From NCBI RefSeq assembly GCF_036507355.1, contig NZ_AP027877.1: 64,000 bases of DNA; one strand, given 5' to 3'. The position numbers and the translations under genes were made by a program. This stretch comes from Escherichia coli (GTDB taxonomy: Bacteria; Pseudomonadota; Gammaproteobacteria; Enterobacterales; Enterobacteriaceae). The notes under the pieces are model-generated. The model saw only the letters and a program-made list of their open reading frames with translations. It did not search any database and was not told where the DNA came from. How positions within the stretch are numbered: the first letter of the stretch is position 1; each line of letters starts with the position of its first letter. Positions 8,185-59,116 of this stretch are shown piece after piece.

Positions 8185-8223
8185 TAGTGCACTGGTAGCT
8201 GTTAAGCCAGGGGCGGTAGCGTG
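8185..8223 (+). promoter_or_regulatory. JUMPstart element with ops (GGCGGTAG) upstream of the O-antigen cluster
   Basis: Sequence cagtgcactggtagctgttaagccaggggcggtagcgtg; ops core at 8212-8219. Confidence 0.65.
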
Positions 8224-10523: not shown

Positions 10524-11939
10524 ATGATTATCCCAATTATTATGGCCGGTGGTTCTGGTACTCGCTTATGGCCTCTTTCGCGTTCGTTATACCCGAAACA
10601 ATTTTTATCATTGATTAATGAAAATAGTTTGCTCCAGGAAACGTTGAAGAGACTTGATGGATTAAATTGTTTGCCTCCTGTCATTGTTAGCAATAATGAG
10701 CATAGATTTATTGTTGCTGAACAATTGCGCCAGTTCGGTGTGGATGACTTCCAGATTATTCTAGAACCTGTAGGTAGAAATACTGCGCCCGCCGTTGCGC
10801 TGGCTGCTCTAAAGTCTCTAGAACTCCATGGCGATCATCATATGCTGGTTCTTGCTGCTGACCATGCTATTCAGGATATTGAAGCCTTCCATGCAGCTGT
10901 TTTAGCTGCAGAACAAGAGTCCGTTGACAATAAGTTAGTGACTTTTGGCATCGTCCCGACCAAACCTGAAACTGGGTATGGCTATATTAAAAAGGGCGAA
11001 CAAGTTAAAAACTCTGTATTTAAAGTAAATTCTTTCGTCGAAAAACCTGATTTAGAAACGGCTAAAAATTATCTCGAACAAAAATGCTATTTGTGGAATA
11101 GTGGTATGTTCATGTTCAAGGCGAGCGTATATTTAGATGAATTGAAAAAATTTCGCCCTGATATTTTAGCAGCGTGTAAAGAGTCGCTTTCCAGTGCTAG
11201 TACTGATCTAGATTTTATCAGATTAAATTCTGATGTCTTTGCAGAATGTCCCGATGAGTCAATTGATTATGCGGTAATGGAAAAAACTCAGGATTGTGTA
11301 GTTATTCCACTTGATGCTGACTGGAGTGACATCGGTTCATGGACATCACTTTGGGAAATATCAGAGAAAGATGAACATGAAAACGTATCGCATGGCGATG
11401 TAATTAACTATAACAGCAGGAACAACTACATTTACTCTGAAGGTTCACTGATCAGCACTGTAGGAGTTAATAACCTTATTATAGTTCAAACTAAAGATGC
11501 GCTCCTGGTAGCACAGCAAGACAACGTACAAGACATAAAGAAGATTGTCGAAATTCTTAAAAAGCAAAAACGTAGCGAACATGTATCCCATCGCGAAGTC
11601 TATCGTCCTTGGGGACGTTATGATTCTGTAGAACGTGGCGACCGTTATCAGGTAAAACGTATTACCGTTAAGCCTGGTGAATGTCTCTCAACACAAATGC
11701 ATCATCATCGAGCTGAGCATTGGGTGGTTGTCGCTGGTACTGCAAAGGTGACTTGCGGCGAACGCACTTTTTTCGTCACTGAAAATGAGTCAACTTTCAT
11801 ACCAATTGGCACAGTTCATACCTTGGAAAATCCAGGAAAGATACCATTAGAAGTAATTGAGATTCAGTCGGGTGTATATCTAGGTGATGATGATATTGTG
11901 CGCCTAAGTGATAAATATGGTCGTGTTGAGGATAAATAA
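10524..11939 (+). CDS. manC: Mannose-1-phosphate guanylyltransferase / mannose-6-phosphate isomerase (471 aa)
   Basis: N-terminal nucleotidyltransferase motif ([15 protein letters not shown]) and C-terminal cupin isomerase region. Confidence 0.85.
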
Positions 11940-11943
11940 TTAT

Positions 11944-13365
11944 ATGAATATTACCAATGATGTAATTAAAAATAGCGGAATTGCATTTGGTACAAGTGGT
12001 GCTCGTGGATTAGTGAAAGATTTTACACCCAACGTGTGTGCTGCATTCACTTATGCTTTTATCGATGTAATGATGAAGGATTTTTCTTTTAAAGAGGTTG
12101 CGCTCGCAATAGATAATCGGCCAAGCAGCTATGCTATGGCACAAGCTTGCGCAGCAGCATTGTTGGAATGTAGTATTAAACCTATTTACTACGGTGTAAT
12201 TCCAACTCCAGCTTTGGCAAATCAAGCGATTGCCGATGGGATTCCTGCAATAATGGTTACTGGAAGTCATATTCCATTTGATAGAAATGGTTTGAAATTC
12301 TATCGTCCAGACGGGGAAATTTCAAAAGAAAATGAGAACAGCATTATACATGCTGAAAAAGAGTATCCTGATGTAACTGTATTGCCAGAATTACAATGTT
12401 CAAAGCGTGCCGCTGATACTTATATCGAGAGAAACACTTCAATTTTTTCAAATATATTTAAAGGTAAACGTATCGGGATTTATGAACATTCAAGTGCGGG
12501 ACGGGATCTTTATTCAGAAATATTCAGTAAACTTGGTGCTGAAGTTGTAAGTATTGGTAGAAGTGATAAGTTTGTGCCTATTGATACTGAAGCAGTATCA
12601 AAAGAAGATGAAGAAAAAGCTTTACACTGGTCATCTGAGTATGACCTCGATATGATTTTTTCTACCGATGGTGATGGCGATCGTCCTTTGGTTGCTGACG
12701 AAAATGGCGTTTGGTTACGGGGTGATATATTAGGACTATTTTGCTCAAAGGCAATGAATATTGAAGCGGTAGCTGTACCTGTAAGTTGTAATACGGTTAT
12801 TCAGACTTGCGGGTGGTTTAATCATGTAACGCTGACTAAAATTGGTTCACCATACGTCATTTCAGCGTTTGATTCTCTGAATAATAGTTTTGATAGGGTT
12901 GCAGGGTTTGAGGCTAACGGTGGGTATCTTTTAGGTAGCGATGTAAATTATAACAGCGGTATGATTAAAGCGCTTCCAACAAGAGATGCTGTTTTGCCTG
13001 CTTTAATGGTACTGGCACTGGCTATAAAAAATAATGTGACTATTTCAAAACTCTTGGCGGAGTTGCCACCACGATTTACCTACTCAAATAGAGTTCAAAA
13101 TTTTGCAACAAGCAAAAGCAAAAGCATTATCGCGTCAGCTCAAGAAAATCCTCAAGAATTTATCGAAAGAATAGGCTTTGTCGATCTTCATGTACAATCG
13201 GTGGATACAATTGACGGGTTAAGATTGACACTAAGTGATGGTTCAATAATCCATTTGCGACCGTCAGGCAACGCACCTGAATTGCGATGCTATGCAGAAG
13301 CAGATAACATAATAAAAGCTGAAAAATTAGTGTTAGAAGTTTTGCATAAAGTTACTCTTTTGTAA
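11944..13365 (+). CDS. manB: Phosphomannomutase
   Basis: Phosphohexomutase motifs ([22 protein letters not shown]); start set at ATG 11944. Confidence 0.85.
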
Positions 13366-13547
13366 AAAATATAAACTTTTTTCTACTCTTGAGCGGTTTG
13401 TCATTTAACCGCTCAGTAATAGATTGTTTATAAATTGTTTATATTTAGCATTGGTGTTTTTATTTGCGTTCATCCCGAATAAGAGATTGTAAAATTAACT
13501 GTTTCTTATTTTTCAAATGAGTTACTTCACTAGTAAAGCTAATTACT

Positions 13548-14879
13548 ATGCATAAGCAATATTATTTATTATTGTGCAATAAAATACAGTTTAAACATCT
13601 GGCTATATATTTTTCTGTATTTCTTTCACTATCCTCATGTTTCTTGTGGGGAGGGGCGGATACATTTGTATCGCAAGTGTATATTGATATTTTAGCCACT
13701 ATATCTACAGCGCTATTAGTTATTTTGATGTTCTATTATTATATTAATAGAGTTCGCTATTTATCACTAACCTTACTTTTTGCATTCGTTTTTTCTTTGA
13801 TTATTGGTTTGCCATCGATTTATCTTTACTATTTTAAAAACGCAAATCATGGGTTTGAAATAATTTGTATCTGGGGGATGTTGATCAATTCCATCCTTTA
13901 CTTGCAAACAACAGAGACTGTCATAAAAGAAGAAAAAAGATATTTAACTAGTTTATTTTATATTTTGTTTTCTATTGTTGCACTGTGTCAATTATACAAA
14001 ATATTAATTTATCTTATGTTTATATTGAATTCAGGAGAAGGGCATTTAGCAATTTATACTGAAAGCGAAGAATTGCTATCCCAAGTTCCATTTTTTATTC
14101 GTGCTATTAGTGGTTTTGCAGTTGTAATGTCATTGTCCACTTTTTATTTTAAAACACCGACCTACATTAAAGTTATTGCATTTGTTTTACTTGCATCTGA
14201 TTTAGCTATTGGAATACGTAATAAGTTTTTCTTTTCAGTGATTTGTATTTTTATACTATATATGTACTCTAATGAGTATAGAGTAAGAAATTTATTTAAG
14301 CAGCTCTCAAAACCAATATTTCTCATCGCCGGTTTTTTATGCTTCTCGATGGTATCGTATTTCCGTGAAGGGTACCAAATCGATTTTATGATTTATATTG
14401 GCATTGTTTTAGATTCGCTATCCTCTACTCTTGGGGGGATGCAGAATTTGTTTGATATGCAATCATCAGGATGGGATCAACTTCATCCCGCTGTGGTATT
14501 CACACAAGTATTACCGCTAAGCGGTCTTGGTTTTCTTGATGATCAACAAATCGCAAAAGATTTTTCAATAATTGTTTTAGGTGATGTATCCTCTGGTATT
14601 GCGTTGTCATCTTCAGGATTGTTAGAGTCATCGTTGCTGAGTCTAAACTTGGGAGTGATTATTTATTTACTGTATTTATCAGGGGTGATGCTATTTATTA
14701 AATGGGGACTAAATAATCAACGGATAATAATAAACTTTGTTGCCATCTCCATGATATCTGGATTTTTTTATGCTGTTCGTGGTGAACTGATTTTGCCATT
14801 GGCTTTTCTTCTAAAATCATTGCCGATTGTTCTTATATCTCCATTACTTGTTAAAAATAAAATTTATCATGGTCAGTAA
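13548..14879 (+). CDS. wzy: Putative O-antigen polymerase (443 aa, polytopic membrane protein)
   Basis: Very hydrophobic, low-GC, many predicted TM segments, located in the O-antigen cluster; assignment by context. Confidence 0.5.
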   Translation: MHKQYYLLLCNKIQFKHLAIYFSVFLSLSSCFLWGGADTFVSQVYIDILATISTALLVILMFYYYINRVRYLSLTLLFAFVFSLIIGLPSIYLYYFKNANHGFEIICIWGMLINSILYLQTTETVIKEEKRYLTSLFYILFSIVALCQLYKILIYLMFILNSGEGHLAIYTESEELLSQVPFFIRAISGFAVVMSLSTFYFKTPTYIKVIAFVLLASDLAIGIRNKFFFSVICIFILYMYSNEYRVRNLFKQLSKPIFLIAGFLCFSMVSYFREGYQIDFMIYIGIVLDSLSSTLGGMQNLFDMQSSGWDQLHPAVVFTQVLPLSGLGFLDDQQIAKDFSIIVLGDVSSGIALSSSGLLESSLLSLNLGVIIYLLYLSGVMLFIKWGLNNQRIIINFVAISMISGFFYAVRGELILPLAFLLKSLPIVLISPLLVKNKIYHGQ

Positions 14880-27384: not shown

Positions 27385-27431
27385 TTTCTTATTCCTCTTT
27401 AAACCTGTCTGAACCGTTATCAACCGCGCAA

Positions 27432-27466
27432 TAAAAAAGCCCCCGGAAGGTGATCTTCCGGGGGCT
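27432..27466 (-). terminator. his attenuator terminator hairpin
   Basis: Minus strand reads gcccccggaag-atcac-cttccgggggc followed by a T-run, between hisL and hisG. Confidence 0.85.
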
Positions 27467-27529
27467 TTCTCATGCGTTCATGAACCACTGGAAGATCTGA
27501 ATGTCTTCCAGCACACATCGCCTGAAAGA

Positions 27530-27580
27530 CTAGTCAGGATGATGGTGATGATGGTGGTGTTTAAATTGAACGCGTGTCAT
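27530..27580 (-). CDS. hisL: his operon leader peptide (MTRVQFKHHHHHHHPD)
   Basis: Minus-strand 16-codon ORF with seven consecutive His codons, read directly from the sequence. Confidence 0.95.
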   Translation of the reverse strand: MTRVQFKHHHHHHHPD

Positions 27581-29805: not shown

Positions 29806-30071
29806 AGAAAAATTATTATGACAAGCCTCTCATTCTCTTGTCATTCCCCCCCCATTTAGGCACAATGCGCCGCTGTCAAAAAATGACTAAAAACCGACGT
29901 TTCATCAGCGTCGGTTATTTTTTGCTTCAAACCAATCATTCATACCAAGAGGCCGGGCTTCGTACCGGATAGATATTTACTAAAAATCGACAGTTGTTGT
30001 CGCTGAGGAATCCAAAAAAATGGGGCAATTTTTTGCTTACGCGACGGTTATCACCGTAAAGGAGAATGACC

Positions 30072-46710: not shown

Positions 46711-46786
46711 TGGCTCCTCTGACTGGACTCGAACCAGTGACATACGGATTAACAGTCCGCCGTTCTACCGACTGAACTACAGAGGA
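46711..46786 (-). tRNA. asnV: tRNA-Asn (GUU)
   Basis: Minus strand is a 76-nt tRNA with anticodon loop CTGTTAA and CCA end; identical to the copies at 57216 and 59041. Confidence 0.95.
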
Positions 46787-49081: not shown

Positions 49082-49118
49082 CAAAAAGCCCGCTATAAAA
49101 GCGGGCTTTTCAGAAATC

Positions 49119-49135
49119 TGGCTCCTCTGACTGGA
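49119..49135 (-). other. 17-bp fragment of the tRNA-Asn 3' end (island boundary repeat)
   Basis: tggctcctctgactgga matches the 3' end of tRNA-Asn; with the 5-bp flank aaatc it is a 22-bp direct repeat of 57211-57232. Confidence 0.8.
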
Positions 49136-49808
49136 TGCGGATTTTGTTGTAGTTTATTGAATTTAAATGATTTTTATGAGTAGAATAAAAATAAGGCCCT
49201 TAGAAAGGCCCCTCAGATATTTTTGCTTAAAAAGATGATGTAAGTCACATTTTCAGGGGCTGTTACCTGGAGGTCTTAAAACCAACGAGAGGTCGTCATT
49301 CCTGGCGTATAGCGGGAATGCACCAGACATACAGAAACAGGGACTTGCACCAGCTTTAATATAGCTGGCTGCACCAGATCCTGGCGCTGCAAAAGTCCAT
49401 GATTGCGCCAGATTCTGAGGGATTACATCGATCTGAGCCAGAGTTGTCCCTTTGGGTTATAGCCTTTTCAGGTCAGGTGCTGTTACCCTTAGCTGGCCTT
49501 TACCCTTTTCCTTTTGACCGTCGGCTATGTGCCAAAAGCGGAATTCCAGTGGTTCTAGAAAAGCTATCATTCCATGGTCAAATTTTGTCGATCACTGCAC
49601 TTATGGAACCGCCATAACATAGGTAGATAGTTGAAGATAGCTAGAACGATGATAGATGATTTTCTTTACAGGGCTGACTTCTAGTCTATCTCATGTAATA
49701 CTCTATATTATATCTAATGTACAATATTAATAGCATTGTGATGTATCGACAACATGGATAGTCCACTGCTATTAAAACTATAATGACATTTAATTGAGAA
49801 ATATAAAA

Positions 49809-50826
49809 ATGACTCTATTAGAAAAATTGTTATCAAAAGGATACTTTCCTAAAGAAGCTCTCCCTCCTTTCTCTACGGAAAAATATGCACGCGCAATTGT
49901 GAATGGATACGATAATCTTCCCCAATTATTTAGAACCGGAAAATTCATAAGTAAGTGCGCTATTCATAATATTTCCAGAAAAGGTACATTACGGAGAAAA
50001 CTTGGAATACCTAATCCCATCAACTTCTTTAGATTAAGTGAGGCAATAACTGAAAATTGGTACGATATATATGAATGCGCAAGTGAATCAACAATATCGT
50101 TGACAACTCCAGACCCTGCCAGCAATGGCGGAAGAGCATTCAACCCAAAGCATTCATTAAATGAGCTTCCAGATATTCATGCAAAACTTAGAAGTAAACA
50201 TAAATATATACTTAAAACCGATATAAGCAGATTTTACCACTCAATATACACTCATAGTATTGCATGGACTTACCATACAAAAGATATTTCAAAAAGAAAC
50301 AGAAGCAATAGTTTATTTGGCAATGTATTAGACAAGCATTCGCAAGATTCGCAAGATGGACAAACAATAGGGCTCCCCATTGGTCCAGATACATCACTTA
50401 TCATAGCAGAGTCTCTGTTATCAAATATTGATCTTAAGCTTAGCGAAAAAGGCATTAGCAATGGCTTACGTTATATAGATGATTATTTCCTAGGGTTCAA
50501 TACAATTGGGGAAGCAGAATCTGCATTAACAATAATGCAGGAACTGTTAAACGAATATGAGTTAGCATTGAACCCCTTGAAAACAGAAATCATACAATTA
50601 CCAATTGAATTCGAGCCATTAGCAATTTCAGAACTAAGGGCATTTTCATTTAGAGATACAGCTGGCGGTCAGAAATCAGATTTAATGCATTATTTCAACA
50701 TAGCTTTCAAGGCAGCAAAAGATTTACCAACGGAACCAATATTAAAATATGCAGTATCAAGGACATTTGAAGTAAATGTTACTGCTGAAAACTATCCTGT
50801 TTTTGAAAATTTTATATTACAATGTG
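49809..50826 (+). pseudogene. Reverse transcriptase, N-terminal 339 codons, interrupted by IS1
   Basis: RT motifs DISRFYHSIY, GLPIGPDTSL, YIDDYF (YxDD) and LNPLKTEI; the frame runs straight into the IS1 end at 50827. Confidence 0.8.
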
Positions 50827-50881
50827 GGTGATGCTGCCAACTTACTGATTTAGTGTATGATGGTGTTTTTGAGGTGCTCCA

Positions 50882-51157
50882 GTGGCTTCTGTTTCTATCA
50901 GCTGTCCCTCCTGTTCAGCTACTGACGGGGTGGTGCGTAACGGCAAAAGCACCGCCGGACATCAGCGCTATCTCTGCTCTCACTGTCGTAAAACATGGCA
51001 ACTGCAGTTCACTTACACCGCTTCTCAACCCGGTACGCACCAGAAAATCATTGATATGGCCATGAATGGCGTTGGATGCCGGGCAACAGCCCGCATTATG
51101 GGCGTTGGCCTCAACACGATTTTACGTCACTTAAAAAACTCAGGCCGCAGTCGGTAA
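50882..51157 (+). CDS. insA: IS1 InsA (91 aa)
   Basis: Zinc-finger N-terminus CPSC...CSHC; canonical IS1 ORF. Confidence 0.95.
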
Positions 51158-51579
51158 CCTCGCGCATACAGCCGGGCAGTGACGTCATCGTCTGCGCGGA
51201 AATGGACGAACAGTGGGGCTATGTCGGGGCTAAATCGCGCCAGCGCTGGCTGTTTTACGCGTATGACAGGCTCCGGAAGACGGTTGTTGCGCACGTATTC
51301 GGTGAACGCACGATGGCGACGCTGGGGCGTCTTATGAGCCTGCTGTCACCCTTTGACGTGGTGATATGGATGACGGATGGCTGGCCGCTGTATGAATCCC
51401 GCCTGAAGGGAAAGCTGCACGTAATCAGCAAGCGATATACGCAGCGAATTGAGCGGCATAACCTGAATCTGAGGCAGCACCTGGCACGGCTGGGACGGAA
51501 GTCGCTGTCGTTCTCAAAATCGGTGGAGCTGCATGACAAAGTCATCGGGCATTATCTGAACATAAAACACTATCAATAA
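51076..51579 (+). CDS. insB: IS1 InsB (transposase catalytic part, made as InsAB by frameshift)
   Basis: Canonical IS1 second ORF overlapping insA. Confidence 0.9.
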
Positions 51580-51602
51580 GTTGGAGTCATTACCTACAAT
51601 GT

Positions 51603-51881
51603 GTTACAGCTGACAGTAGCACATTAAAATACACCGTCAATCAGCTTATAAAATACAAAAGAATAGGTTATGTTCAGAACGTTGAGAACATTTCGCATAT
51701 TTTGAGACAATTAGCAATAACTGAAAGCTCACTTGGCCATGGACACGAAGTTGCTTATTGCCTATGGCTTTATTTGATACTACGCATCCCCATACCAGAA
51801 GTCGTCGTTAAAAATGTGGTACCAATGAGAGATCCATTTGTTGCAATTTTGTTATGCGATTGCAGGCAAAAAACCTCATGA
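51603..51881 (+). pseudogene. Reverse transcriptase C-terminal 92 codons displaced by IS1
   Basis: With one copy of the 9-bp duplication removed, the RT frame continues without stops from 51603 to TGA at 51879-51881. Confidence 0.7.
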
Positions 51882-52171
51882 CTTTTATACCTGATTTCTC
51901 AATTTATGAGCAAATGATGGTGATGGAAGAGCTATCGGGCGATATGTAGATTTTTGTCTATGAGATGCTTGCAAAAGGATGGTTTCAACCATTATCAAAC
52001 CAAAATCCAATTAGTCAAAATGAGTGTTATAGGTTCCTATTGAATTCAGGTGTTTTTTTCTATAATGAACATCTCTCATTAACTATTATGGCTGAAAGTC
52101 CAATTGATACAGATGGCTCGGCAGAGGGATTCAGTGGTTGAAATTAAAAATTATCTGTAAATAACTAACCC

Positions 52172-52210
52172 CCCTCCCTTTAATTTAATATTAAGGGAGG
52201 GTTGTGTTTC
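52172..52210 (+). terminator. Hairpin terminator downstream of the RT gene
   Basis: ccctccctt-(12 nt)-aagggaggg perfect 9-bp stem followed by ttgtgtttc; also marks a GC-content transition. Confidence 0.4.
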
Positions 52211-52449
52211 GATATACATATATGGGCTTTGGTGAATAAATCAGATTTGGGATAAACATCCCTGGAGACAGTTGCAGCTGTCAGGTAATACGCACGCTTT
52301 TTGCTCAGAACCCCATCAATGCGCCGCCAGCACTTTTGCAGCCAGCCCAGTCGGGTTACGCCGTCTGGACTCCCAACTTTTGATGATATCGACGCTGGTT
52401 CCTTAGGGTTATTGCGTAACGATTTATTCTGCGCCAGTCATGAAAGCCG

Positions 52450-53409
52450 TTATTCCTTCTTCCATTCGTGCGCGTAAACCTGCTTCACCCAGCGACCGCG
52501 CCCGTCGCCATGCCCCAGGTCCATCGCCACCATTGCCAGCGCCTCTTTTTCGCTGAATCCCTGCGCCAGATACCGGCGAATATCGTCCTGCGCCAGATAC
52601 CGGCGAATATCGTCCTGCGCCCAGGCGTAACGCAGCGAATGTGGGGAGTATTTGCCCGTCAGCCCCATACGCAAAGTCTGGTTGCGCCAGTATTTCATTG
52701 CCTGTTTAAGGCTTGCCGCATCAATCAGCCTGCCGTTGCGCAGTCCTGCCACCACAATGGCATTATCGAGCGCCCGTTTAACTGCGCCAGCATTCTGAAT
52801 AAGGGTATCGCGGGGCCGCCCGCCTTTGGTGCCAAACACGATGGTTAGCCGGGTGGCTCCACGTTCAAGCGACTGCCGCCACGTCAGCAATGAACGTGAA
52901 CAGCGTACCGCCTCCTGTGAACGTAACCCCATCAGCCGCGCCAGCTCCAGCGCTGCCGCCAGTCCTGCGTCTTTCAGCCGGGCAGTCTCTGCCATCTGTT
53001 GATAATATTCCGGCGTGATGGCTTTCCGTGTACCATTGCGGGATACGCCAGCCAGCCCCAGCGATTTATTCGATATCCGCTCACTCTGCGCCAGTTTTTC
53101 GCGCCCGGCCTGCGTCAGTATTTTACGGATAGCCGCCGTTTCGTTATGCAGCGTCTGTTTCTGAATACCCTGCGCCAGTCGCATCTGAATATACGCCTCA
53201 ATATGCTTCGCCTTTAAATGATGGACATAGCGTATCTGAACGTTCAGTTCCGTCAGTCGTTCGCAGAACCGTTCTGCCATGGCGATACGGTCATGGACAG
53301 TCTTGTGCGCCCCGCCAGCCTGCCGCGCCAGGTTTTTCATCTCTCTTTCCAGCATACCCATTTTGCTTTTCCTCTTATCTCGCTCCTGATTTTCACAAAA
53401 CCACAACAC
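52450..53409 (-). CDS. Tyrosine recombinase / phage-integrase-family protein with internal 9-aa tandem duplication (319 aa)
   Basis: C-terminal HSLRY...LGHGDGRGRWVKQVYAH resembles recombinase box II with catalytic Tyr; DDIRRYLAQ is duplicated through a 27-bp tandem repeat at 52561-52614. Confidence 0.6.
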   Translation of the reverse strand: MLWFCENQERDKRKSKMGMLEREMKNLARQAGGAHKTVHDRIAMAERFCERLTELNVQIRYVHHLKAKHIEAYIQMRLAQGIQKQTLHNETAAIRKILTQAGREKLAQSERISNKSLGLAGVSRNGTRKAITPEYYQQMAETARLKDAGLAAALELARLMGLRSQEAVRCSRSLLTWRQSLERGATRLTIVFGTKGGRPRDTLIQNAGAVKRALDNAIVVAGLRNGRLIDAASLKQAMKYWRNQTLRMGLTGKYSPHSLRYAWAQDDIRRYLAQDDIRRYLAQGFSEKEALAMVAMDLGHGDGRGRWVKQVYAHEWKKE

Positions 53410-54253
53410 ACAACGGATACAGCTTTCCCCGGCGCATAGGCCGATAGCCCCTGATTTTTGTCGGGGCTGCGAGCAGTACCTGAGCGCCGGGGCGACGGCT
53501 GTTGAGGTTTTGCGGGGTATCGGTTGTGCTCTCAGAGCAGCCGCCAGCGTGAGCTGGTCATCCCCCGGACCGTCCTGGTGGTCCCCCTCCGGTACTGGCT
53601 CATGTTCTCCTTTGGTGAATGAATGGTTGAAATAAATGCTGAAAAGCGACGTCAGAAGCTCGCCTGTGGCTGGAACAGTTGATATGACTGGTGCAGATGA
53701 AAATTTCTGCGGGCGTCAGTCTCTCACTCTGCGTGAGCGACTGACGCCCTGGTCTGGCGCAGGCGCTGAAAATTACACTCTGGTGCAGGATGGCGGCCAC
53801 GCGGCAGCAAATGCCTTCGGCAAATGCAGGCCGCAGCCCGTCATGTAAAGGGCGCTGGTAATCAGCAGGGTATAAGTGGGCCGGAGAAATTCCGGCAAAG
53901 AGAAACCGTGCAGCCGGTGAAGGCTGTTGCCGTTAAGCGATGACGATGAAGCCGTCCAGTGTATGTACTCTTAGCCTCAAACGCTTTCGCGTTCCGGTAT
54001 TGCGGAGGTCGTACCGGTAGCAGGGGGCTGGTCGTCCTGATAAATCAGGGGCTTCTTGCAGACCATGAAGCCAAAGGGGCTGTCAACCGACAGCTTATTG
54101 CAGGAGAGAGATTACACCGTAATTTCTGGCGCAGAAAGGGGAAACTCATTTTTCTGGAAATTGAGTTTCCCCCTGAATTTATGGAAAGTTTGTGAATGGA
54201 ACACTGCCGCGCTTCGCTTGTCGTCTCCCGGTGTGCGATTTGCTGTATCAGGA

Positions 54254-55788: not shown

Positions 55789-57066
55789 TTACGACGCCTG
55801 TTTCAGGCGGCGGGCATACTGGTAAGCTGAAACATACCCGTCACTGTTTGCATCAAGATAATCTGACCACCATTGCATCATCTCGATCCGCTCTTCCAGA
55901 TATTCAGCCTTGTGAATATACGCAGCGCGGACGCTGTTTCTTTCCTGGTGACTCATTTGTTTTTCAATCGCTTCTTTGCTCCACAGCCCCGATTCACTCA
56001 ACGCACTACATGCCATCGCCCGGAAGCCATGCCCGCAGACGTCTTTTTTGGTGTCATAGCCCATCACCCGCAGCGCTTTATTCACGGTGTTGTCGCTCAT
56101 GCACTTATCCTGGTCGTACTCGCCGGGAAAGATAAAGGCCAGATGACCGGAGAGGGCTTCGATCTGTTTCAGGATCGCAATTGCCTGATCCGACAGCGGC
56201 ACGATATGTTGAATTTTCATTTTCGACCCCCGGTAAGAGAAGCGCACATTTTCGATCTGCTCGCGTTCTTCCGCGATCACCCACAGCTTTTGCTGCCAGT
56301 CGATTTCACTCCAGCGAGCAAAGCGTAGCTCGCTGGAGCGCACAAAAAATATCAGTGACAACTTAAGGGCGTATTTCGTCAGCAGCCTGCCGCAGTAGTT
56401 ATCCGTACGGGTTAAAAGCTCTGGCAGCCTGTCCAGCGACAGGGCCGGGTAATGATTAGTCTCTGGCGCAGCAAATTCACCATCCAGATACAGCGCGGGG
56501 TTCGCTTTGAGCAACTGCTTTTTCATCGCGTAGTGCATGATGTCGGTGACATAGTTTTTCAGCCGGGCGGTGATCTCCAGAAAGCCTTTGCTCTCCACCT
56601 TACGCAGCGTGACCAGCAAATCCTCTGTTTCGATCTCCCCGATAAGGCGATCCCCGATATCCGGGAAAACATACATTTCCAGTCTGCGCATAACCGTTTT
56701 CGCGTAATGTTCAGACCAGCGTTTATGCTCGCCATGCCAGTTAGTGGCGACCTGGCTGAACGTCTGTCCGTTTTTCTTCTTCTGTTTCTCCGTCTGCTTC
56801 ACCGCAGCAGGATCGACGCCTGCATGAATGTTATTGCGTGCCGCTTCCCGTAAACGGCGAGCCTGCAACAGCGAGATCCCCGGGTAGGGGCCAAAGGCCA
56901 GCTTTTTCTCTTTCCCGTCGATACGGTACTTCATGTACCAGAGTTTTGAGCCATTAGGTTTGATCAACAGGTACAGTCCGGAACTGTCTGTCATTTTGAA
57001 AGGTTTGTCGGAGGGTTTGATCTTGCGAATCGTGGTATCTGTTAATGCCATAGCGGGGGGCTCCAT
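55789..57066 (-). CDS. P4-family tyrosine integrase (425 aa)
   Basis: N-terminal arm-binding domain (LTDTTIRKIKPSDKPFKMTDSSGLYLLIKPNGSKLWYMKYR) plus C-terminal catalytic domain; adjacent to the tRNA-Asn 3' end. Confidence 0.9.
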   Translation of the reverse strand: MEPPAMALTDTTIRKIKPSDKPFKMTDSSGLYLLIKPNGSKLWYMKYRIDGKEKKLAFGPYPGISLLQARRLREAARNNIHAGVDPAAVKQTEKQKKKNGQTFSQVATNWHGEHKRWSEHYAKTVMRRLEMYVFPDIGDRLIGEIETEDLLVTLRKVESKGFLEITARLKNYVTDIMHYAMKKQLLKANPALYLDGEFAAPETNHYPALSLDRLPELLTRTDNYCGRLLTKYALKLSLIFFVRSSELRFARWSEIDWQQKLWVIAEEREQIENVRFSYRGSKMKIQHIVPLSDQAIAILKQIEALSGHLAFIFPGEYDQDKCMSDNTVNKALRVMGYDTKKDVCGHGFRAMACSALSESGLWSKEAIEKQMSHQERNSVRAAYIHKAEYLEERIEMMQWWSDYLDANSDGYVSAYQYARRLKQAS

Positions 57067-57215
57067 TTGCTCACCGAACCGTGAGGCCCCCGATTAAGCC
57101 CACAAAAACTATGGATGTCAAGAAACCCGGTAGCCTCTTGTGAGACAACCGGGTAAAGATAAGTTCTTGTTTTTTAACTATCTCGAGACTCATAGAGATG
57201 TCTCAAAACTAAAAT

Positions 57216-57291
57216 CTGGCTCCTCTGACTGGACTCGAACCAGTGACATACGGATTAACAGTCCGCCGTTCTACCGACTGAACTACAGAGG
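57216..57291 (-). tRNA. asnU: tRNA-Asn (GUU), island integration target
   Basis: 76-nt minus-strand tRNA identical to the other copies. Confidence 0.95.
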
Positions 57292-57452
57292 AATCGCTGT
57301 TGAGGCACATCTTAACGGCGAAAAATCTTTTGTCAAACCCGATTTTTAAATTCCCCAACTGTTTGCCGTTTCTATCAACAGTTTGTTGCATTTGCAGACA
57401 ATTTGTTGGCGAAAATCTTTGCAGCTTTGCTGATTCTCCCTCATTATTTGAA

Positions 57453-59040: not shown

Positions 59041-59116
59041 TCCTCTGTAGTTCAGTCGGTAGAACGGCGGACTGTTAATCCGTATGTCACTGGTTCGAGT
59101 CCAGTCAGAGGAGCCA
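59041..59116 (+). tRNA. asnW: tRNA-Asn (GUU)
   Basis: tcctctgtagttcagtcggtagaacggcggactgttaatccgtatgtcactggttcgagtccagtcagaggagcca. Confidence 0.95.

Follow-up and report, generated by a model that had tools for sequence, protein, structure and literature searches.

A reverse transcriptase (RT) gene split by an insertion sequence raises the questions of what enzyme it once encoded and whether removal of the insertion would give a working gene. The gene lies in the window, the 64,000-nucleotide stretch of Escherichia coli DNA analyzed here. A sequence-only reading had described it as an RT of about 431 residues that is restored by deletion of IS1 and one copy of the flanking repeat. The most probable answer, with a probability of close to 0.9, is that the gene once encoded a stand-alone anti-phage RT of class 1 UG/Abi, closest to DRT6, and is now a pseudogene, broken three times, that forms a self-contained cassette in an integrase-bearing tRNA-Asn island.

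Reading frame and lesions of the RT gene

The RT ORF opened with the ATG at 49809 and was matched by the Pfam RVT_1 model with an E-value of 1.6e-14. Its translation contained all of the motifs quoted in the sequence-only reading, namely DISRFYHSIY, GLPIGPDTSLIIAESLL, YIDDYF, and LNPLKTEI. The catalytic residues were D138, the aspartate of motif A, and Y222-I-D224-D225, the YxDD of motif C. In an alignment of 52 homologous sequences, residues R63, D138, D224, D225, and K258 were invariant and N255 was near-invariant, and the C-terminal part contributed the invariant residues W455, E460, W466, and F492.

The proposed split of the RT gene at 50827 by an IS1 flanked by 9-bp repeats was confirmed (Table 1). 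The element was identified as IS1 by its length of 768 bp, its terminal inverted repeats (18 of 23 bases matching), the intact insA and insB' frames, the 9-bp duplication, and the empty site in relatives. Like the known IS1, it carried insA/insB' with an A6C frameshift site and lay in AT-rich DNA, and nothing unusual was seen in it. Four E. coli assemblies, G4/9 and three others (L005–L007), had an uninterrupted site in which TACAATGTG occurred only once, and this empty site in related E. coli indicates a real transposition of IS1. No second IS1 copy was found in a search of the window. The insertion looks recent, since the duplication was perfect and the IS1-truncated product of 340 residues was found on one contig only.

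When IS1 and one repeat were removed, the frame was free of stops across the mended junction until the TGA at 51879-51881, which gave 431 codons. This part of the earlier description held, whereas the whole ancestral gene was longer and consisted of 518 codons (49809-52141). The intact alleles, including those of the Enterobacter type, had a length of 1557 nt, compared with 1556 nt in the IS1-free window allele. When the latter was aligned with the intact allele from the same island (L005), exactly two differences were found in 1557 nt, a gap in an A tract and a G-to-A change at 51948. The alignment to intact alleles identified the TGA at 51879-51881 as a premature stop that arose from the deletion of A7 to A6, and this deletion divided the 518-codon gene into ORFs of 431 and 87 codons overlapping at ATGA. 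The base at 51948, where the window carries a nonsense codon, was G in E. coli G4/9 and in L005–L007.

Table 1. Positions of the RT gene, its lesions, and the surrounding elements in the window
Feature	Position	Strand	Remarks
Left 22-bp direct repeat, AAATCTGGCTCCTCTGACTGGA	49114-49135		Exact match to 57212-57233; bounds the tRNA-Asn island of ~8.1 kb
RT cassette leader, conserved, ~95 bp	49711-49808	+	Homology with Enterobacter-type loci L002 and L004 begins at 49711-49716
Promoter-like site, TGGATA-18-TATAAT	49755-49784	+	10/12 match; consensus match only
RT gene, 5' part	49809-50826	+	Codons 1-339 and first base of codon 340; fingers, palm, and first alpha-repeat helices
Left 9-bp target-site duplication, TACAATGTG	50818-50826		Single copy in uninterrupted alleles
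IS1, 768 bp	50827-51594	+	Same orientation as RT gene; insA 50882-51157, insB' frame 51076-51579
Right 9-bp target-site duplication, TACAATGTG	51595-51603		Matches the left copy
RT gene, middle part	51604-51881	+	From within codon 340 through codon 429, then out-of-frame Thr-Ser-stop
A6 tract, site of 1-nt deletion	51868-51873	+	A7 in intact E. coli alleles; single gap relative to L005–L007
RT gene, 3' part	51878-52141	+	Codons 432-518 of the intact gene, now in another frame; last alpha-repeat helices
TAG nonsense codon	51947-51949	+	TGG to TAG (G to A at 51948); replaces invariant W455
Terminator-like hairpin, CCCCUCCCUU...AAGGGAGGG then UUGUGUUU	52172-52209	+	Inside the conserved cassette
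Island integrase gene	55789-57066	-	Beside the right repeat
Right 22-bp direct repeat	57212-57233		Covers part of tRNA-Asn (57217-57292, minus strand) at its 3' end

The homologues agreed with a gene of 518 codons. The closest homologues were 518 residues long with a coverage of 100%, and all 51 aligned homologues were single proteins with a conserved C-terminus. The 87-residue ORF aligned to positions 443-507 of the PADLOC Drt4 profile and to positions 425-489 of the Drt6 profile. When all three lesions were undone, the RT was identical in 518 of 518 residues to the intact E. coli protein P0126, which other strains (for example GCA_029366585.1) encode in the same island.

It is very unlikely that the gene encoded an RT of 431 residues that was inactivated by IS1 alone and would work again once IS1 and one repeat had been precisely excised. 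Such a gene would explain the unbroken frame over the mended junction and the 431-residue annotation in E. coli G4/9. However, the intact alleles carry one extra A in the tract, the 87-residue "hypothetical protein" corresponds to the C-terminal end of this RT, and the window has a stop codon in place of W455. In addition, the related UG15 loses its immunity when 38 C-terminal residues are removed (PMC9226505). The deletion of IS1 and one repeat leaves the frameshift and the nonsense codon, both of which the sequence-only reading had missed. Because of the three lesions in the window copy, the removal of IS1 would not restore the RT. With its three independent lesions, the gene in the window is a pseudogene that cannot act in defence.

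Two side observations concern annotation and sequence variation. RefSeq lists the 431-residue product in E. coli G4/9 as an "RNA-directed DNA polymerase", and the 3' part goes under an 87-residue hypothetical protein in annotation elsewhere. A candidate missense change specific to the window, M67I relative to G4/9, was rejected, as Ile67 was the family consensus and G4/9 held the variant.

Fold and family assignment of the repaired RT

The RT was matched by profile models of defence RTs, with E-values of 1e-171 (570 bits) for the PADLOC Drt4 model (PDLC02177) and 6e-166 (551 bits) for the Drt6 model. The labels of these two models overlap for this RT clade. The matches supported the earlier view of a single-gene RT of the UG, DRT, or Abi type that is not a classical retron. 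Models of other RT groups scored far below their cut-offs, with 39.6 bits for the NCBIfam retron St85 model (cut-off 235) and 44 bits for the group II maturase model TIGR04416 (cut-off 300), and the fold matches of the latter group reached TM-scores of only 0.34–0.40. Weak RT-domain matches are all that would speak for an RT of a retron, group II intron, DGR, or CRISPR-associated system, and such an origin is hardly credible. Apart from the low scores, the protein has an alpha-repeat C-terminus and no maturase or X domain, no retron or group II intron RNA was found in the window by an Rfam scan at gathering thresholds, and no partner genes are conserved.

The AlphaFold2 model of the repaired 518-residue RT had a pLDDT of 91.6, with values of ~95 up to residue 500. 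The modelled protein was composed of strands and helices up to approximately residue 280 and was all helical in residues ~285–500. The model superposed on DRT6, with an alphaRep domain taking the position of the thumb. In the window allele, IS1 interrupts this domain at residue 340, the frameshift at residue 429, and the stop codon at residue 455.

When the RT was compared with known structures, the 'hexameric DRT6' structure (PDB code 9wy8) was matched by phmmer with an E-value of 2.3e-68 and 234 bits over residues 3–499. It was also the first match in Foldseek, with an E-value of 3e-34, TM-scores of 0.89 and 0.93, and an r.m.s.d. of 2.1 Å over 506 columns. The DRT4/UG15 structures came second, with an E-value of 2e-19, 73 bits, a TM-score of 0.80, and an r.m.s.d. 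of 3.9 Å, and were followed by AbiK and Abi-P2. Sequence and fold comparisons together place the RT in class 1 UG/Abi as a DRT6/UG12-like protein, which is predicted to be closer to the reference DRT6 than to other RT groups. The class, which the sequence-only reading had left broad, is thereby given more precisely.

The RT is unlikely to be a DRT4 (UG15) rather than a DRT6 (UG12). The Drt4 models were the best matches in both PADLOC (570 versus 551 bits) and NCBIfam, but the NCBIfam Drt4 model (NF041749) gave 211.5 bits, which was far under its equivalog cut-off of 450, and the structures favoured DRT6 over DRT4/UG15 in both sequence score and fold. The priming Tyr125, which is absolutely conserved in DRT4, was not conserved either. 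In the phmmer alignment, N124-Y125 of DRT4 lay opposite K114-H115 in a loop aligned with low confidence, and in the stretch from R109 to A125 the alignment of 52 sequences had no Tyr, Ser, or Thr at an invariant or near-invariant position. The DRT4 label, taken from the names of the top PADLOC and NCBIfam models, was dropped for DRT6 on the PDB sequence and fold comparisons.

The assigned relative, DRT6 (UG12) of Sphingopyxis sp. (PHR10625.1; PDB code 9wy8), is likewise a single gene that encodes RT fingers and palm with YxDD, followed by an alpha-repeat domain. The two proteins are similar in length, at about 510–560 residues. The Sphingopyxis protein and the RT shared only about 31% identity in the structural alignment, and the RT, unlike its Sphingopyxis counterpart, lies in an E. 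coli tRNA-Asn island and is a pseudogene in the window.

The architecture and class of the RT are also those of DRT4 (UG15) from E. coli 12-c8-a (WP_031606642.1; PDB codes 9vdo, 9ltm, 21ou, and 9l9s), which presumably shares the same chemistry (PMC12783706). Residues R63, D138, D224, D225, K258, and N255 of the RT probably correspond, by motif position only, to Arg75, Asp149, Asp240/241, Lys274, and Asn271 of DRT4 (PMC12783706). The identity between the two proteins was 22%, and the priming Tyr125 of DRT4, which faces His115 of the RT, was not conserved in the RT clade.

The AbiK, Abi-P2, and AbiA proteins, in which a helical repeat domain likewise follows the RT, belong to class 1 UG/Abi as well and carry out protein-primed, template-independent DNA synthesis. 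They were more distant from the RT, with identities of 12–19% and TM-scores of 0.54–0.70 for AbiK and Abi-P2 and 0.33–0.39 for AbiA. They also differ in their oligomeric states, have N-terminal priming sites (Y44 in AbiK), and are encoded by plasmids or by P2 prophages. When phage genomes were searched with tblastn for a copy of the RT, only distant RTs of the Abi-P2 type were obtained, with an identity of 30% or less and partial coverage.

The cassette and its genomic setting

The RT gene appears to form a stand-alone cassette of ~1.8 kb that includes a leader and a terminator-like hairpin, judging from the extent of the conserved sequence. When compared with the loci L002 and L004, homology between genera was limited to 49711-52300, and those loci had a different genomic context. 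The terminator-like hairpin gave a folding energy of -18.9 kcal/mol and a z-score of -1.95 in a direct fold, which is modest, and a simple terminator scan did not pick up the hairpin 3' of the RT gene. No ncRNA, msr/msd, or intron RNA was found in the cassette.

A conserved partner gene of the RT was sought by comparison of the neighbours in seven related loci and of the homology boundaries, and none was found. The RT had GmrSD as a neighbour in the L002–L004 loci, of which L004 is from Enterobacter asburiae, whereas cbl and an Integrase_1 gene were its neighbours in E. coli. The earlier statement that no effector gene flanks the RT is consistent with this variation between loci. The cassette had a GC content of 35%, compared with 47% for the window. 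This low GC content, the 22-bp repeats, and the integrase gene bear out the description of a low-GC cassette in a tRNA-Asn island.

Proposed function and order of decay

The function of the intact enzyme is proposed from its characterized relatives. DRT4 and DRT6 both carry out template-independent, protein-linked DNA synthesis and provide defence by abortive infection; ORF55 activates them, and they are toxic to cells in which sbcB is knocked out (PMC12783706). Protein-primed synthesis of this kind and a hexameric assembly are known for the Sphingopyxis DRT6 (PMC12783706; PDB code 9wy8). UG12 (DRT6) protects against T5 and ZL-19 (PMC9226505). The intact 518-residue RT consists of a fingers and palm domain and a helical alpha-repeat domain that replaces the thumb, and it would be hexameric by homology with DRT6 and DRT4. 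Using one of its own residues as the primer and no template, it would constitutively make random ssDNA, and the host 3'-5' exonuclease SbcB/ExoI would normally clear this ssDNA. On infection, a phage ssDNA-binding protein (ORF55 of T5) would shield the ssDNA, which would accumulate and lead to cell death and an aborted infection. The product, trigger, and phage range of the E. coli orthologue are extrapolated from these relatives, since its identity to the characterized Sphingopyxis DRT6 was only 31%. Phage resistance is not expected from the window allele.

The three lesions differed in their distribution among E. coli contigs. The 431-residue allele was present on 151+8+2 contigs and the 87-residue ORF on 172 contigs, whereas the 58-residue ORF that follows the TAG was found on two contigs only. 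Intact alleles were listed on about 43 contigs, compared with about 160 with the frameshift. The frameshift is taken as the oldest lesion because it is common to about 160 other E. coli contigs. These contigs are free of the IS1, and the RT gene was therefore probably impaired already before IS1 arrived. The 1-nt deletion in the A7 tract removes the last 87 residues, the TGG-to-TAG change strikes the invariant W455 in this lost part, and IS1 lies in codon 340 with the duplication of 9 bp. That the frameshift alone would abolish RT function is inferred from the deletion experiment in UG15.

The A6 allele could instead still be functional, through -1 slippage of tRNA-Lys on the A tract, a split enzyme made by reinitiation at ATGA, or a switch in the A tract, in which case IS1 and the nonsense codon would be the real inactivating events. 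Both ORFs are open and outnumber the listed intact alleles, with about 160 contigs against about 43, and they overlap at ATGA. In the model, the break between the two ORFs lies in residues 429–438, which are non-helical and sit between helices, and slippage by -1 after the AAA codon would yield exactly the intact QKNLM. Moreover, the further differences between the window and the intact allele are all disruptive and none is silent, which would be unusual for purely neutral decay. Nevertheless, a functional A6 allele is improbable. An A6 tract is short for efficient slippage, a stimulatory element was not identified, and the high contig count may reflect one successful clone. The Enterobacter-type alleles have CAAAAAGGG at the position of the A tract, and the A7 is thus not conserved, which argues for a mutational hotspot rather than a programmed site. 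The loss of UG15 function on C-terminal truncation (PMC9226505) also stands against it, and none of these considerations applies to the window allele with its two additional lesions.

As a speculative and quite unlikely extension, the A7/A6 tract may make a DRT6-type gene switchable or leaky, and the cost of residual untemplated synthesis would in that case have favoured the insertion of IS1 and the loss of W455. The open state of both ORFs on about 160–170 contigs, the position of the split in a loop, and the disruptive nature of all differences are compatible with such leakiness.

For the preferred reading of a triply broken DRT6-like pseudogene, the significance of the locus is limited. The DRT6/UG12 family has already been published together with its structure and likely mechanism, and the intact protein is present in public databases and is recognized by defence-finder profiles. 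The locus matters little beyond annotation as an ordinary decayed defence gene. It offers a small, clean case of how such a gene decays step by step in a tRNA island. For annotation, the RefSeq pair of a 431-residue RT and an 87-residue hypothetical protein in many E. coli genomes should be corrected to one frameshifted gene.

Reverse transcriptase gene and its lesions

The reverse transcriptase (RT) gene began with an open reading frame from ATG 49809, which encoded the motifs KTDISRFYHSIY, GLPIGPDTSLIIAESLL, RYIDDYF, and LNPLKTEI, and its product matched Pfam RVT_1 (E 1.6e-14). At 50827 the frame met an element of 768 bp that had intact insA and insB' frames and whose IS1-type inverted ends matched at 18 of 23 bases; the 9-mer TACAATGTG flanked it at 50818–50826 and 51595–51603. 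E. coli G4/9 (NZ_CP060073.1) showed 99.9% identity on both flanks and carried a single 9-mer and no IS1; therefore, the pair was not a chance repeat. The same empty site occurred in three further E. coli assemblies. No second IS1 copy was present within the window. The sequence-only reading, an RT frame split by an IS1 with a 9-bp duplication and an uninterrupted site to be sought in relatives, was thus borne out on each point.

When IS1 and one repeat copy were removed in silico, 431 codons were open to the TGA at 51879–51881, as had been read earlier. The further claim, that this TGA ended a restorable 431-aa RT, was rejected because homologues had 518 residues and a frameshift and a stop at W455 were also present. 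The matches of the 431-aa form to its best PADLOC profiles ended near positions 436 (profile length 541) and 417 (profile length 511), and 87 more codons followed in the next frame. The 87-aa piece alone matched the C-terminal positions of the same profiles, and the fused parts aligned to almost their whole length (E 1e-171 and 6e-166). The closest database proteins were single 518-aa chains at 100% coverage. RefSeq gave each of the two parts (in G4/9, L001 8210–9765) its own gene entry and no pseudogene label, and the 87-codon part was annotated in G4/9 as a 'hypothetical protein' that overlapped the RT at ATGA.

By nucleotide alignment, the gene had 1556 nt in the window and G4/9, one base short of the 1557 nt in intact alleles. 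Compared with the intact E. coli alleles in the same island (L005–L007), this lesion was a change of A7 to A6 at 51868–51873. A second point difference in the window, G>A at 51948, changed TGG to TAG and removed W455. This Trp was invariant in a 52-sequence alignment, and so were three other residues of the severed part, E460, W466, and F492. When all three lesions were undone, 518 of 518 residues matched P0126, an E. coli protein that is intact and was found on 14 contigs. Besides these lesions, window 49809–52141 showed zero differences in 1557 nt from the intact allele at L005 9001–10557. The changes were disruptive only, with none silent or missense, which may be chance or a hint of selection for inactivation. 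Ile67, which differs from G4/9, was rejected as a window mutation because it is the family consensus.

The frameshifted 431-aa product with the window sequence was found on 151 contigs, with variants on 8 and 2 more, and the 87-aa ORF on 172. The IS1-truncated 340-aa product (WP_338388290.1) was found on one contig only, and the 58-aa ORF after the TAG on 2. These numbers mark the frameshift as an old lesion with a wide distribution; by the same counts, IS1 and the W455 stop appear to be particular to this strain. The frameshifted allele (~160–170 contigs) was commoner than the intact 518-aa E. coli alleles (~43).

Class and inferred mechanism of the RT

The best profile matches were models labelled Drt4 and Drt6; UG30, UG14, AbiK, and UG31 came next, and these searches put the protein in the group of defence-associated UG/Abi RTs. 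Retron and group II intron models scored far under their cut-offs. The sequence match to PDB 9wy8 covered residues 3–499 (E 2.3e-68, 234 bits), compared with E 2e-19 and 73 bits for DRT4/UG15 entries. An AlphaFold2 model built from the 52-sequence alignment was confident (pLDDT 91.6, pTM 0.90) and had a mixed α/β RT core; beyond it, between residues ~285 and ~500, the fold was entirely helical. Its first Foldseek match was also 9wy8, 'Cryo-EM structure of the hexameric DRT6' (TM 0.89/0.93, r.m.s.d. 2.1 Å, 31% identity), ahead of DRT4/UG15 (TM 0.80) and then AbiK and Abi-P2. The NCBIfam Drt4 equivalog cut-off was not reached (211.5 bits vs 450). From the PDB sequence and fold matches and this shortfall, the RT was filed as a probable DRT6 (UG12)-like class 1 UG/Abi RT, which sharpens the earlier assignment to a non-retron, defence-type class, right in outline. 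The Drt4-labelled PADLOC models PDLC02177 and PDLC02179 scored the RT as high as or above the Drt6 model PDLC03748; these labels are inconsistent for the DRT6-like clade.

DRT4 synthesizes template-free random ssDNA covalently primed on Tyr125, which is held low by a host 3'-5' exonuclease; T5 ORF55 shields the DNA 3' ends, leading to accumulation, cell death, and abortive infection (Wang et al., PMC12783706). DRT6 likewise shows untemplated protein-linked synthesis, ORF55 activation, sbcB-knockout toxicity, and abortive infection (PMC12783706). UG12 protects against T5 and ZL-19 and needs the RT active site, and UG15 lacking 38 C-terminal residues loses immunity (Mestre et al., PMC9226505). 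The intact RT would act as these homologues do. Residues R63, D138, D224, D225, and K258 were invariant and N255 nearly so in the alignment; by motif position they probably correspond to the dNTP- and metal-binding residues of DRT4. The priming tyrosine of DRT4 was not conserved in this family, and H115 was aligned opposite.

With IS1 at residue 340, the frameshift at 429, and the stop codon at 455, the window allele cannot form the α-repeat domain and should be inactive. It is improbable that the A6 allele retains some activity, whether by −1 slippage or as two pieces made at the ATGA overlap: its abundance among contigs, the position of the 431/87 split in a loop of the model, and the disruptive nature of every further window change are in keeping with this, but the A6 tract is short, the A tract is not conserved beyond E. 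coli/Yersinia alleles, and the spread of one clone could account for the abundance. The window RT is read as a decayed copy of an already known defence gene.

Cassette and tRNA-Asn island

The RT gene in E. coli was flanked by cbl and an Integrase_1 gene, whereas its left neighbour in loci L002–L004 (L004, Enterobacter asburiae) was GmrSD. DNA homology between the two contexts was limited to 49711–52300, where a leader of ~95 bp carrying a promoter-like site preceded the gene and a terminator-like hairpin came after it. The cassette contained no Rfam RNA family, and no close RT relative was found in the phage collection searched. The changing neighbours and the limits of homology agreed with the earlier observation of no flanking effector gene. 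In other Enterobacteriaceae, the intact cassette lay directly 3' of GmrSD, a type IV restriction gene, at a distance of 118 bp, which is a typical defence-island arrangement.

The 22-bp repeat pair bounded an 8.1-kb island, which also contained three small HTH genes. The repeats, the integrase, and the GC content (35% in the cassette vs 47% in the window) upheld the proposal of a low-GC cassette in a tRNA-Asn island. The window had three tRNA-Asn (GTT) genes, and the island used the middle one. The EFASI RNA, also part of this island, lay immediately 5' of the Integrase_1/Phage_int_SAM_2 gene. The other Rfam elements are ordinary E. coli chromosomal features with no bearing on the RT.

Coordinates of features in the window and in related loci
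Feature	Coordinates	Strand	Remark
22-bp direct repeat, att-like	49114–49135 and 57212–57233		takes in 3' end of tRNA-Asn 57217–57292
Integrase_1/Phage_int_SAM_2 gene	52450–53409	−	inside island
EFASI RNA	53470–53603	−	Rfam RF02957, 112 bits vs gathering score 51
P4-type tyrosine integrase	55789–57066		inside island
tRNA-Asn	46711–46786	−	
tRNA-Asn	57217–57292	−	
tRNA-Asn	59041–59116	+	
His operon leader	27431–27554	−	Rfam
JUMPstart element	8185–8223	+	Rfam
naRNA4	2770–2840	−	Rfam
STnc240	29851–29925	+	Rfam
GmrSD + RT locus, L002	821–2710		
GmrSD + RT locus, L003	446–2335		
GmrSD + RT locus, L004	5993–7882		

The island collects IS elements; in the E. coli locus L006, an IS21-family element (rve transposase and IstB, 11917–14219) was inserted with the Integrase_1 gene on one side and the HTH genes on the other. 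A NadS-family pseudogene fragment annotated by RefSeq just 3' of the RT cassette in G4/9 (L001 9940–10026, ~window 52316–52402) adds another remnant to the island.
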